Shown here piece by piece: positions 249 through 10,007 of a DNA stretch of 10,007 nt. The position numbers and the translations under genes were made by a program. This DNA is from a virus. Positions within the stretch are counted from its first letter, which is position 1. The number at the start of each line of letters is the position of its first letter. The stretch lies in the UHGV virus genome UHGV-1346345; one strand, written 5' to 3'. A model generated the notes under the pieces. It saw only the letters and a list, made by a program, of their open reading frames with translations, searched no databases and was not told where the DNA came from.

Positions 249-276
249 NNNNNNNNNNGCGCAGCCGGATAGTACC
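249..276. other. N10 gap (249-258) with flanking inverted copy; probable assembly artefact
   Basis: 259-276 (gcgcagccggatagtacc) is the exact reverse complement of window bases 1-18. The copy may extend further but its partner would lie upstream of the window. Confidence 0.8.
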
Positions 277-451
277 GTTATCAATGCCAGTGCTAACAGG
301 TCGGGCGCTACCTGGGTAGAAGAAAGCGCCATTCTTCAGTTTTATAAAATTCTAAAAACGGTACTCATGCAGCGCCGTTTTCAGTGTTTTATGTCATTCC
401 TGCCGCTGTATAAACAGGAAGTAAAAGCAAACCAGACAGGAGATTATTCTG

Positions 452-990
452 ATGGCTAAGGCTAAAGGCATTAAGTTGCCTCAATTCAAAGTCCCGCTCT
501 TTGAGCATACAACCGTTTTCTTTTGCCCGACCCGCGAGATGTTTTATGAATTTTGCGAAAAGGCAGGAATTCCAATTGAGCCTGATTTCGAACTGGCAGG
601 AGGATTGACGCTTACTTGCACTGGTGAGAAAGGCGGTAACTTCTACGTGATCGCAGTATTCGACAATGAGTTAGGAACGCTGGTACATGAAGCGGCGCAC
701 ACGACATTTCACGTTTTAAGTGATGTAGGCGTCGTGGCGACCACTGATCCAACTCATCCGATGTAACCATCCATAATCAATCNNNNNNNNNNTTTTTTTC
801 ATTTTTCCCTATCCTGGCAGAATCAAACGAAGCACAGGTAGCGGCAATGCAGGCGGCTGAAGTCGTTGAGCAGGCATTAGAACAGGCAGAACAGCCGAAG
901 GAAGAAGAAAAACCTGCGAAGAAAGGCAAACGTAAGCCGAAATCAAAAGAAGCGTATGTACCGCGCGTAATGAGCTTTAAACGAGGCTGA
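452..990 (+). CDS. hypothetical protein with HExxH motif (LVHEAAHTTFH); reading frame broken by the gap block at 760-815
   Basis: AGGAG at 438-442 then ATG 452. ORF 452-766 ends in a stop that lies inside an inverted-copy block. Downstream frame (816-990) encodes ...AESNEAQVAAMQAAEVVEQALEQAEQPKEEEKPAKKGKRKPKSKEAYVPRVMSFKRG*. The frames rejoin if a 56-bp block (760-815) is removed. Confidence 0.45.
760..792. other. N10 gap (783-792) with flanking inverted copy; probable assembly artefact
   Basis: 760-782 is the exact reverse complement of 1077-1099 (23 bp). The false stop of ORF 452-766 lies inside this copy. Confidence 0.8.
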
Positions 991-992
991 TT

Positions 993-1082
993 ATGATTGC
1001 ATCAATATTAACGTTTATAGGCGGTATGGCGGCTGGATTCATTCTTTGCATGTTTCTGGTGGCTATGTCTATGCAGGATTGA
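993..1082 (+). CDS. micro-ORF 1, 29-aa hydrophobic peptide (MIASILTFIGGMAAGFILCMFLVAMSMQD)
   Basis: GAGG at 983-986, 6-nt spacer, ATG 993. Single hydrophobic stretch consistent with one TM helix. Confidence 0.35.
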   Translation: MIASILTFIGGMAAGFILCMFLVAMSMQD

Positions 1083-1084
1083 TT

Positions 1085-1180
1085 ATGGATGGTTACATCA
1101 TCGCAGGATTAATCGGTATTTCTGTATTTCTGGTGGGTTTTATTATCGCCGTACTGATAACCGTAAAAAGCAAGTATTAG
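1085..1180 (+). CDS. micro-ORF 2, 31-aa hydrophobic peptide (MDGYIIAGLIGISVFLVGFIIAVLITVKSKY)
   Basis: AGGA 8 nt upstream of ATG 1085. TM-like core with basic C-terminus. Confidence 0.35.
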   Translation: MDGYIIAGLIGISVFLVGFIIAVLITVKSKY

Positions 1181-1193
1181 ATGGGGTGGCAAG

Positions 1194-1268
1194 ATGATTG
1201 ACCCGCTAATTATCCTTTCTGCCTGCGTCGCTGTATGGCTGGTGATCATGATATTCATTGAAAGCTGA
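1194..1268 (+). CDS. micro-ORF 3, 24-aa hydrophobic peptide (MIDPLIILSACVAVWLVIMIFIES)
   Basis: ATG 1194; weak GG-rich upstream; TM-like. Confidence 0.3.
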   Translation: MIDPLIILSACVAVWLVIMIFIES

Positions 1269-1279
1269 AGGTATCCACA

Positions 1280-7419: not shown

Positions 7420-7424
7420 AAACC

Positions 7425-8052
7425 GTGAGTAAAGAATTGATTCAGGTTAATACCAAATTAACCGCTAATACCATCCGCCGGGAAACATATAACGGGCGCG
7501 AACACATTGTAGTCCCGTCGTATACGTTGCCCTTCAATATCGTTATGAATCGTGAATATTACCCGGAAGCTGAAATCATTGCTAATTATCAGTCACTGGA
7601 AGGCACACTCGCACCGCTGGGCCATCCTACGGTTGACGGTGAATTTGTTTCCGCATTTAGCCCGGAAGGTCTGAATATTGGCTTTTGTGGAGCGTGGAAC
7701 AGAAATGTTGAATTACGCGGCAATCGTGTTTATGTGGAAAAATGGGTGGATGTTGAAACCGCCAGCCATTCAGAACAAGGACGCGAATTATTAAGCCGAC
7801 TGGAAGCGCTGGAAAAAGGCGAAAGCAAAGATCCGATCTGGTCATCTGTTGCCGTATATCGTCAGCGTATGCCAGCTACTGAAGAGATGAAAGCCCAGGG
7901 TGCTGACAGCGTTGTCAAAATCATGTCGATTGACCATGACGCCATCTTACTGCATGAACCGCCAGCCGCATCGCCTGAACAGGGCGTTGGCCTGATGGTT
8001 AACACTGACCAGGCGAAGCCGTTAATGATCAAGCAGAAAAATCCATATAAGA
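7425..8052 (+). CDS. head-module protein, possible prohead protease/scaffold N-terminal part; 3' end interrupted by N10 gap
   Basis: GGAG at 7413-7416, 8-nt spacer, GTG 7425 (the track starts at TTG 7410). Follows the head morphogenesis gene. The frame runs into the gap at 8053. Confidence 0.5.
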
Positions 8053-8086
8053 NNNNNNNNNNATCGGATCTTTGCTTTCGCCTTTT
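8053..8086. other. N10 gap (8053-8062) with flanking inverted copy; probable assembly artefact
   Basis: 8063-8086 is the reverse complement of 7814-7837 (24 bp). I found no partner for the left flank. Confidence 0.8.
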
Positions 8087-8103
8087 CGTTAATGGCGGTG
8101 GCA

Positions 8104-8760
8104 ATGAAAGAAAACAGCTATCGCACGCTTGAAAGACAACTTGAGGAAGCGGCGCGTAAACTGTTCCCCGATGCAGATTATGTCTATGTCGTGGACTTCA
8201 CTGATAAAGAAGTGACTATTGCTACTAATGCCGAAAATGCTCAAGTTTGCACGTATGAAAAACAGGCTGATAAAATAATTCTCAATAATGGCGAGCTTGC
8301 AACCAATGAGGAAAGTAAATCATGGTTCGTTCAGTTCGCTGAACACCTATCCAATCTTTTCTCACTGAATGAAAAAATTAAGGCCAATAAATCGGAGGAC
8401 GATCCCATGCCTTTGACCAAAGAAGAACGCGCCGAACTGGTAAAAGAAATTAACGAAGGTTTATCCGCTAATATCGCCAGTGCAGTAGCTGAAGCACTTA
8501 AACCAGTACAGGCAAGCGTAGAAGAATTACAGACCAATCAGAAAGCGATTAAAGAAGAGATCGCAGCAAACGCAAATAAAGAAGTAGCAGAAAAACGCGC
8601 CGCAGTTGCGAAAGTACACGGCGAAATTGTTGCTAACGCATTAAGTGGGGAAGCGTTAGAAGCAATGTTTAAATCCCTGGGCAACGCAACGCCGATGGCA
8701 ACCAACGCAGCAAGCGAAGGTAAAAAAGGCGGAGTACCAGACTTTAACACTTATTTCTAA
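8104..8760 (+). CDS. scaffold-like alpha-helical protein, possibly the C-terminal part of the 7425 gene
   Basis: Helical, charged, Ala/Glu/Lys-rich sequence (EERAELVKEINEGLSANIASAVAEALKPVQASVEELQTNQKAIKEEIAANANKEVAEKRAAVAKVHGEI) typical of scaffolding proteins. Weak ribosome-binding site before ATG 8104. In frame with the upstream gene if the gap block adds no net sequence. Confidence 0.5.
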   Translation: MKENSYRTLERQLEEAARKLFPDADYVYVVDFTDKEVTIATNAENAQVCTYEKQADKIILNNGELATNEESKSWFVQFAEHLSNLFSLNEKIKANKSEDDPMPLTKEERAELVKEINEGLSANIASAVAEALKPVQASVEELQTNQKAIKEEIAANANKEVAEKRAAVAKVHGEIVANALSGEALEAMFKSLGNATPMATNAASEGKKGGVPDFNTYF

Positions 8761-8776
8761 TTAAAAGGGGATCACA

Positions 8777-9205
8777 ATGTTTCGTTTTTGTCGTGTAAAT
8801 ATTGATGGTAAGTCAATTACCGAAACCTATGCAGCCAATGAGGCGGTGAAACCTGGTGAACTGGTTAAACTGGCTGAAGGTAAATTCGCTAAAGCAGCCC
8901 TTGCAGATGTTGGCAAGGCCCAACTTTTCATCGTTAACCCGGCATTCCATGAAGGCAAAACCATTGCTGATGAAATTGCTAAAGACGCAACCGTTGTTGC
9001 TGATTATGTGGAACAGGGCCGTGAGTTTGCTCTTCGTGTCCCTGCCGCAGCATACAAAAAAGGCGCAGCTATTGCTTTTACCGCCACTGGCATCAAGCTG
9101 TTTACCGAGCCGCTTGAGTCAGCACCCGCAGATCCGATTGTCGCATACTGCCAGGAAGACGTAACCCTGGAAGCGGAAGACTTTATCCGCGTTCGCGTCG
9201 CTTAA
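8777..9205 (+). CDS. hypothetical head protein (142 aa)
   Basis: Strong ribosome-binding site AAAAGGGGA before ATG 8777. Located between the scaffold-like gene and the putative capsid gene. Confidence 0.6.
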   Translation: MFRFCRVNIDGKSITETYAANEAVKPGELVKLAEGKFAKAALADVGKAQLFIVNPAFHEGKTIADEIAKDATVVADYVEQGREFALRVPAAAYKKGAAIAFTATGIKLFTEPLESAPADPIVAYCQEDVTLEAEDFIRVRVA

Positions 9206-9222
9206 TTTAAAAGGGGAAAAAC

Positions 9223-10007
9223 ATGTACTTTACTAAAGAAAACCTCGCTACCAACGCCCGTATGCAGGGCCATTGGAAAGAACTGTGGGCGCAACGCAAC
9301 ATCTTCAACGATCAGCATGACGCCATGATTGCAGCAAACAAGGCGAACATGACCGCTGAAATGATTGCCTGTAACGCCGTTGGCGGCTTTGCAAAAGAGT
9401 TCTGGAAAGAAATCGACAACCAGATTATCGAACTGAACACCGAAGAAATCGGTATTGAAATCGTCAACGACCTGATGGGTGTGCAAACCGTACTGCCTAT
9501 CGGTAAAACGCTGAAAATGTACAGCGTATCCGGCGACATCAACGATGAAGTCGTAATGTCTATGGATGGTCAGGCGCCTCACGGCTATGATCACACCGAA
9601 TACGATTTTAGCGACAGTTTTCAGTTTAAGTTGCTGNNNNNNNNNNCTCGGTAAACAGCTTGATGCCAGTGGCGGTAAAAGCAATAGCGATGGCGACCCG
9701 ATCCCGATGTTCGCAGCGGGTTACGGTGTTAACTGGCGTTTAGCCCAGGGCTTAAATACTGTAGGCATCGACCTTGCCCTGGACAGCCAGCTCCTGAAAC
9801 TGAAAAAATTCAACAAAGCACGCGTTAAATTCTACCTTGAAGGTAACGAAAACATCGTGGTTGATGGTCATAAAGCAATGGGTATTAAAAACCACAAAAA
9901 CACCCAGCAACTTAAACTGAAAACTGTCGCTAAAATCGACCTGACCACCGCGACTTTCGATAAGATTATTGAATTCTTTACCACTGGTGAGTTCGGGAAA
10001 CTGGCCC
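9223..10007 (+). CDS. putative major capsid protein (3' end outside window; frame broken by the gap block at 9604-9688)
   Basis: Ribosome-binding site AAAAGGGGA before ATG 9223. Frame 1 up to 9603 and frame 2 from 9689 rejoin if the 85-bp block is removed (...HGYDHTEY-DGDPIPMFAAGYGVNW...). Assignment as capsid is from position in the head module only. Confidence 0.45.
9603..9688. other. N10 gap (9637-9646) with flanking inverted copies; probable assembly artefact
   Basis: 9603-9636 is the reverse complement of 9905-9938 (34 bp) and 9647-9688 is the reverse complement of 9068-9109 (42 bp). Confidence 0.85.

Follow-up and report, generated by a model that had tools for sequence, protein, structure and literature searches.

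Inverted copies beside the six ten-N joins of the coliphage scaffold UHGV-1346345 are very probably spurious read tails

The stretch of UHGV virus genome UHGV-1346345 analysed here (10,007 nucleotides (nt), hereafter the window) belongs to a lambdoid (mEp021-like) coliphage and was scaffolded from paired-end reads of a human gut metagenome sequenced at very low depth. It is interrupted by six runs of N, and most of the flanks of these runs match, as perfect reverse complements, sequence lying a few hundred nucleotides away. The runs and the copies alike very probably arose in assembly and do not belong to the phage genome, the six runs of 10 N (N10) being placeholder joins and the inverted copies being spurious read tails. 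In particular, comparison with other public assemblies and with closed relatives showed that the N10 is a fixed-length placeholder joining collinear, nearly adjacent contigs, that the inverted copies are chimeric tails which came from reads and were kept at coverage holes, and that the sequence of the phage itself is continuous at these sites.

All six N runs described between positions 249 and 9688 in a first-pass annotation of the window were found, and every one of them was exactly 10 N long. Perfect inverted copies directly abutted the runs on nine of the 12 flanks, with lengths of 23–42 nt (one being reduced to 18 nt by the window edge). These nine copies were at the same time the nine top-ranked inverted repeats of the window, each touching an N run and none being located elsewhere. 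With regard to inverted 18-mer pairs no more than 700 nt apart, 109 were observed, compared with a mean of 0.03 in 300 shuffles. The direction of copying was invariant, as initially described, and held for all nine copies: a left flank copies downstream sequence and a right flank copies upstream sequence, with the copied sequence lying 200–540 nt further on at these nine contig ends. The earlier statement that each gap is flanked by inverted copies proved too general, as three flanks carried none, namely the left flank of gap 1, which is genuine sequence, the right flank of gap 2 (TTTTTTT) and the left flank of gap 5. The latter is a 25-nt tip (8028–8052), for which searches of the window, of the 22-kb scaffold, of the mEp relatives and of all phage records returned chance matches only and no source. 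Two of the proposed pairs, although real as inverted copies, had to be redrawn: the one given as 259–276 with 1–18 is in full a copy of 35 nt (259–293) whose source reaches 17 nt past the window start, and the source of 5102–5124 is 4733–4755 in place of 4734–4756.

As a reference for the window, we employed the ENA record ERZ28629619, 'RAMP15-1_SAMN03418274_METAG-scaffold_86' (21,962 nt; hereafter scaffold_86), which was found via an exact-protein lookup. Outside the blocks it was 100% identical to the window, and it was uninterrupted at gaps 1, 2, 3, 4 and 6, where the real end-to-end distances between the contigs were +69, +43, +54, −18 and +2 nt, respectively. For gap 5, judged against the mEp phages, the distance was about −8 nt, with CGTTAATG as the overlap. 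The length of the N run was thus fixed at 10 whatever the true distance, and since the true distances run from −18 to +69 nt, the blocks are sites of short real gaps or overlaps and not insertions. The contigs on either side had the same orientation at every gap and were collinear with scaffold_86, with the phages mEp044 and mEp010 and with the MIN12 prophage. A run of 72 N, corresponding to an estimated gap, was also present in scaffold_86, so the 10 N represent a floor or a placeholder. An "artificial gap" of 10 N is known from SPAdes/metaSPAdes; a literature search for a '10 Ns' convention was not decisive.

Closed lambdoid coliphages (mEp044, mEp010, mEp554 and others) as well as E. coli prophages share approximately 90% identity with the window. 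The comparison with closed related phages that the first-pass annotation had suggested was informative, in that mEp044, mEp010 and an E. coli prophage were all without any block. At window position 2235, one base differs from scaffold_86, which may be a minor variant or a difference in consensus between two assemblies that were apparently built from the same reads.

The open reading frames (ORFs) of the HExxH gene, the portal gene, the MuF-intein gene and the capsid gene were whole in scaffold_86 and broken by the blocks in the window, and the false stops, false ORFs and false inverted repeats pointed out earlier are indeed produced by these blocks. It had further been claimed that deletion of each block restores a continuous reading frame. 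This was correct for the portal gene (gap 3), in which 18 codons were still missing after the deletion, and for the intein (gap 4), in which the 18-nt duplicate (six codons) remained in place. Frameshifts, in contrast, remained at gap 2 in the HExxH gene (net change of −37 nt) and at gap 6 in the capsid gene (net change of −7 nt). The 18-nt direct repeat at gap 4 was also considered as a target-site duplication and ruled out, as it is a true overlap of contig ends. The coordinates of the joins and contig-end blocks are compiled in Table 1, together with those of the homologues of an antisense ORF described below.

Table 1. N10 joins, contig-end blocks and homologues of the antisense ORF; positions refer to the window unless another record is named.
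Feature	Position	Strand	Remarks
N10 join 1	249-258		intergenic, between lysis gene and HExxH gene; 69 real nt lost; left flank genuine
Inverted tip, 35 nt	259-293	+	reverse complement of a source that begins 17 nt ahead of the window start and ends at window 18 (= reverse complement of L004 7428-7462)
Inverted tip, 23 nt	760-782	+	reverse complement of 1077-1099; 1 nt in common with the real sequence; truncates the HExxH gene
N10 join 2	783-792		43 real nt absent
Wrong contig start, 7 nt	793-799	+	TTTTTTT in place of the true TTTGATG
Inverted tip, 23 nt	5069-5091	+	reverse complement of 5381-5403 (portal gene)
N10 join 3	5092-5101		54 real nt absent, equal to 18 portal codons
Inverted tip, 23 nt	5102-5124	+	reverse complement of 4733-4755
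Inverted tip, 40 nt	6256-6295	+	reverse complement of 6555-6594 (within the N-terminal splicing domain of the intein)
N10 join 4	6296-6305		true contig ends overlap by 18 nt
Inverted tip, 35 nt	6306-6340	+	reverse complement of 5957-5991
18-nt duplicate of 6238-6255	6341-6358	+	CGGGAACGGTTGTACACG; contig-end overlap
Contig tip, 25 nt, no source found	8028-8052	+	ATCAAGCAGAAAAATCCATATAAGA; same tip in scaffold_86
N10 join 5	8053-8062		same N10 in ENA scaffold_86; 422-amino-acid gene cut in two
Inverted tip, 24 nt	8063-8086	+	reverse complement of 7814-7837; equal to the first 24 nt of contig L008
Inverted tip, 34 nt	9603-9636	+	reverse complement of 9905-9938 (capsid gene); 2 nt in common with the real sequence
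N10 join 6	9637-9646		2 real nt absent
Inverted tip, 42 nt	9647-9688	+	reverse complement of 9068-9109; 3 nt in common with the real sequence
Homologues of the antisense ORF	L014 1528-2370, L015 1528-2226, L016-L027	− (L014, L015)	

Tips of the same kind were present on other public contigs. At gap 5, scaffold_86 carries an identical N10 and an identical 24-nt inverted copy, and another of its N10 runs has on its left side 32 nt that form an inverted copy of sequence located about 300 nt downstream. The MEGAHIT-style contig k119_17506 (L008), which belongs to a different ENA assembly, opens with exactly the 24-nt copy of gap 5, while a second one, k119_29846 (L005), has a terminal 25-nt inverted copy of window 6158–6182. 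In a third assembly, the SPAdes-style contigs NODE_1909 (L007) and NODE_630 (L011), whose names give coverages of 2.56 and 3.57, end in inverted copies of 40 and 31 nt, respectively. Because these unscaffolded contigs already carry the tips, the latter came from the reads and were present in the contigs before scaffolding, and the scaffolder added the Ns only. Moreover, the window, scaffold_86 and L008 share one identical gap-5 tip down to its outer end, which fits a limit set by the end of a single read. When a window-specific chimeric junction and an ordinary 40-mer were searched for in viral, metagenome and genome collections, no match was obtained with either.

In order to describe the anatomy of the junctions, a catalogue of 13 tips from four assemblies was compiled, in which 12 junctions were scored for shared bases and 11 distinct breakpoint sites were recognized. 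In all 13 tips, the contig reaches a breakpoint p and then continues with the opposite strand from 154–539 nt further on (median 333), heading back to p. Reads 1 and 2 of an ordinary paired-end fragment are related to each other in just this way, and the mate-like geometry noted in the first-pass annotation therefore stands, with the tips always pointing inward. The numbers of bases common to the real continuation and to the tail were 1, 0, 0, 2, 0, 2, 1, 0, 0, 0, 3 and 0 at the 12 junctions. Microhomology was consequently at chance level overall, with seven junctions sharing no base (P = 0.16 for one base or more), which argues against template switching by a polymerase; microhomology-mediated template switching was rejected for both sides of the junction on the same grounds.

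The contig side of the breakpoints, by contrast with the far end of the source, where no motif was seen in the 13 tips, showed a clear sequence preference. The next true base was G at 9 of the 11 sites (P = 1.3e-4), and CG/GC (the slash marks the breakpoint) was found at five of them (P = 1e-9). Examples in the window are the breakpoints at 760, 5068, 6255, 6341, 8087, 9604 and 9686. That at 5068 (CATCCT/GGTAGGG) recurs with two different partners in two assemblies, so the position of a breakpoint is a property of the sequence and not of a single molecule. The arms of a 7-nt inverted repeat, CCTGCCG...CGGCAGG, enclose gap 4, and reads from both directions stop at CG/GCAGG. Regarding the tails, their unambiguous lengths were 22–40 nt, none being shorter or longer, and the ceiling of 40 nt matches 100 − 60, i.e., read length minus minimum trimmed length, both values being taken from other papers of the same group. 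Several causes of the breakpoint pattern were discarded: a Tn5 target-site pattern, as the contexts have no C at +9; trimming at adapter starts, as there were no AGATCGG or CTGTCTC starts; and blunt ligation of two sheared ends, which would give random metagenome-wide partners and the same context at both ends. The fact that the two joined ends are not equivalent argues against ligation of this type.

The sequencing run appears to be SRR1930176 (Logan), from sample SAMN03418274. On the basis of the RAMP15 label and this run, we infer that the data set is the Hadza/Italian one of Rampelli 2015, obtained on a GAIIx with 2x100 nt reads. A later paper from the same group describes the Hadza/Italian data as GAIIx, 2x100 nt and 0.9 Gbp over 38 samples (PMC6570844), and the standard procedure of the depositing group was to trim the Q2 tail and to throw out reads shorter than 60 nt (PMC6570844, PMC4774116). 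A literature search for the run and sample accessions returned no match.

These features suggest a mechanism in which the tails would be the first bases of the mate read, a quality-trimmed read 1 having been padded with the start of read 2; we consider this proposal, taken as a whole, about equally likely to be right or wrong. Read 1 would be cut where its low-quality tail begins, and in GA-era data the cut site would be sequence-specific, just inside GGC motifs or inverted repeats, which would explain both CG/GC and the breakpoint with two partners. The trimmed read 1 and read 2 would then have entered storage or export as a single spot and been divided again at a fixed 100 nt, with the result that read 1 was padded by up to 100 − 60 = 40 nt of read 2, from the opposite strand and one insert length off. 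Given the Q2 trimming and the 60-nt minimum read length of the group, the predicted maximum tail is 40 nt. A one-sided motif would be expected under this model, in which the quality-dependent cut of a read is joined to an arbitrary end of a fragment. Where coverage is good, tails of this kind would be clipped off as dead-end tips. In a genome covered about 3–5x, k-mer coverage holes would offer no alternative path, and the tail would survive and block the overlap of the two contig ends; the scaffolder would then infer adjacency from read pairs and write the minimum gap of 10 N. Tails under about 21–22 nt would hold no genuine k-mer and would be lost to error correction, tip clipping or k-mer count filters. 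The smallest k of SPAdes and MEGAHIT is 21, which matches this floor of tail length. We tentatively interpret the breakpoints as strand-specific read-quality cuts of GAIIx chemistry.

A number of points weigh against this account. The mis-split step is a conjecture drawn from contigs. Scaffold_86 carries tips on just two of 12 gap flanks, indicating that their rate depends on the pipeline, and the tip at 8028–8052 is the only one off the mate geometry, a tip with no source not being predicted by the mate model. At three of the 12 junctions, 2–3 nt are shared (P = 0.035), so a weak contribution of microhomology is possible. With regard to the sample, the tie between SAMN03418274 and PRJNA278393 comes solely from the 'RAMP15' label and the accession neighbourhood. 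Finally, k119 in the names of MEGAHIT contigs implies reads longer than 119 nt, an odd fit with 2x100 data.

Among the alternatives to padding with mate sequence, physical library chimeras come first; we consider them improbable. Here, fold-back or strand-switch synthesis by the polymerase of end repair or amplification, inverted chimeras of the type produced in multiple displacement amplification (MDA) or intramolecular ligation would, during library preparation, join a strand to the opposite strand a few hundred nt off, and reads spanning the junctions would contaminate the ends of contigs. Inverted chimeras of MDA were reportedly described by Lasken and Stockwell in 2007. A precedent in sonicated libraries exists as well, inverted chimeric artefact reads having been documented there under the PDSM model (PMC10908179). 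Such chimeras would also predict a read-level origin and recurrence across assemblers, they would accommodate the 2–3 nt shared at three of 12 junctions, and the sequence preference of the breakpoints could mark sites at which a polymerase pauses or the DNA is nicked. However, microhomology is at chance overall and absent at seven of 12 junctions, and the joined ends are unequal, with the motif on one side only. Furthermore, tips up to k (55 or more) or hairpin misassemblies would be expected, whereas 13 of 13 tips, as judged from contigs, are 40 nt or shorter (P = 8e-4 versus a uniform distribution over 22–54). Chimeric sequence at nine of 12 contig ends would moreover need tens of percent of chimeric reads, far above the usual rates of such artefacts.

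An error of the scaffolder or gap filler, by which mates were put in the wrong orientation during gap closing, had been the favoured explanation in the first-pass annotation. It accounts for the mate-like geometry and for the location of the tips exactly at N runs, but it is very hard to maintain in view of the tips on N-free, unscaffolded contigs in both MEGAHIT and SPAdes style and of the gap-5 tip that is identical in three separate records (window, scaffold_86, L008). We give similarly little credence to the view that the junctions were physical molecules formed at sequence-specific sites of phage DNA (CG/GC, often in short inverted repeats), for example via strand switching or nick-induced fold-back during replication or packaging, in which case the breakpoints would reflect a real property of this DNA and not a quirk of sequencing or data handling. 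A deliberate edit, also raised at first, or real biology (short insertions of inverted sequence, phage genomes that are rearranged or defective, or the inverted repeats of a mobile element) is extremely improbable: although the copies are perfectly identical and the 18-nt direct duplication at gap 4 looks at first sight like a target-site duplication, independently deposited public records share the tips, every copy in the window touches an N run, scaffold_86 has no blocks at five of six sites and all closed relatives have none, the 18-nt duplicate is a plain overlap of two contig ends, and the blocks would wreck the portal, capsid and head-morphogenesis genes.

Since the phage genome is continuous at these sites, the blocks are of no biological consequence; their effect is on annotation. 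They truncate or frameshift the portal, capsid, head-morphogenesis (MuF-intein) and HExxH genes and a 422-amino-acid head gene, and they yield 'ORFs with X' and nine false perfect inverted repeats that top the rankings of repeat finders. The artefact occurs in at least four public assemblies, apparently of one data set, and derived catalogues of metagenome-assembled genomes and viruses, as well as protein clusters, may carry chimeric ends. A simple screen consists of searching for an N10 or a contig end whose adjacent 20–40 nt recur in reverse complement less than 600 nt further inward. The archived reads themselves need re-splitting if the reading of mis-split mates is true.

Aside from the joins, the MuF-like (Phage_Mu_F) head-morphogenesis gene (window 5412–7419) holds an intein of 321 amino acids, which spans 6228–7293 on the sense strand with 103 artefactual nt counted in. 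It is marked by the start CYLPGTVV, the block B motif TPNHP and the end GHVYDL...IASN/C, with its insertion at ...NSIN/C... (slashes mark the boundaries). The intein is absent from the relatives mEp044, mEp010 and MIN12, and no DNA homologous to it was found in any complete E. coli genome. On the minus strand, an ORF of 285 amino acids runs from 7233 to 6376 in exact codon register with the intein frame. Homologous inteins were present at the same MuF site in Vibrio phage vB_VaM_H2, in Cronobacter phage ES2 and in 12 IMG/VR contigs (eight distinct DNA sequences), and both frames were open in all homologous inteins found. Free-standing homologues of the antisense protein were not found, all relatives found lying within the same intein on its antisense strand.

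Full-length alignments of the antisense proteins gave 44–51% identity. The PD-(D/E)xK-type domain REase_MTES_1575 was matched by all three antisense proteins examined (best E = 3.8e-5, below the Pfam cut-off), and N-terminal helix-turn-helix (HTH) domains were detected as well (HTH_7 at 2e-6). A profile search of the antisense ORF against PDB sequences gave HTH matches only, and its single-sequence AlphaFold model had a pLDDT of 48, too poor for a fold search. Across 11 genes, differing codons in the middle of the intein were synonymous in 38.5% of cases in the antisense frame versus 14.2% in the sense frame, whereas in the exteins and splicing blocks the values were 7–18% and 38–45%, respectively. 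Amino-acid identity in the intein middle was likewise higher in the antisense frame (0.63 versus 0.48). The conserved His codon of block F, read on the other strand, gives the ATG of the antisense ORF, which is preceded by GGAG 9 nt upstream. Judged from sequence, this looks like a candidate homing-endonuclease gene lying antisense within an intein, the sense frame of which would only be maintained as open. The closest precedent found is the ShiLan insertion (PMC11855218), whose out-of-frame 'hidden HNH' is on the same strand and which has no splicing domains, while the ORF of the phage described here lies antisense within an intein. No description of such an antisense arrangement in an intein was found in the literature, within a limited searchable library.

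Other genes of the scaffold also deserve mention. A free-standing endonuclease gene with HNH_3 and a weak AP2 match (window 2042–2545) is located between the genes for a Sf6-type small terminase (1529–2029) and a large terminase (2529–4016). The mEp relatives have nothing that corresponds to the region of roughly 1931–2600, which makes a mobile homing-endonuclease insertion probable. In scaffold_86, a second HNH_3 gene lies upstream of the lysis gene. The portal protein (window 4095–5467) matches Pfam Phage_portal_3 (E = 1.7e-18) and has a homologue in the E. coli MIN12 prophage (L003 5421–6791). In many E. coli genomes, this homologue bears the RefSeq/PGAP label 'anti-CBASS protein Acb1 family protein', which looks like a doubtful automatic name. 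The HExxH gene (window 452–990; intact copy L004 7920–8462) encodes a protein of 180 amino acids with a HEAAH motif and no Pfam family, and is conserved in the mEp relatives, where it has the lysis genes on one side and a cluster of tiny ORFs on the other.

When compared with known systems, the N runs of the window correspond to the placeholder gaps of paired-end scaffolds, with the same fixed 10 N between collinear adjacent contigs, and the Ns themselves show no difference from them. The inverted chimeras of the PDSM and MDA types resemble the tips in being read-level joins of a sequence to the reverse complement of nearby sequence, but they need an inverted repeat or microhomology and lie anywhere in a read, whereas the tails of the window are at most 40 nt long and come from insert-size distance. 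Sequence-specific errors of the Illumina GA at GGC motifs and inverted repeats are said to have been described by Nakamura et al. in 2011 and Dohm et al. in 2008. The breakpoints in the window are similar to these in their strand-specificity, their position at CG/GC or before G, the inverted repeat at gap 4 and the GAIIx platform; those errors, in contrast, consist of miscalls and loss of quality without appended mate sequence, so that the link to them is a proposed one. As for archived mates that have been concatenated or mis-split, the window differs in that only a short piece of the mate, and not the whole of it, is added, and in that one tip has no nearby source. Otherwise the proposed likeness extends to plus-strand sequence followed by minus-strand sequence one insert further on, chance-level microhomology and the pairing of one fragment end with one read cut, and possibly to the ceiling of 40 nt, which would equal 100 − 60 if the read length and the 60-nt rule of the other papers apply to these data.

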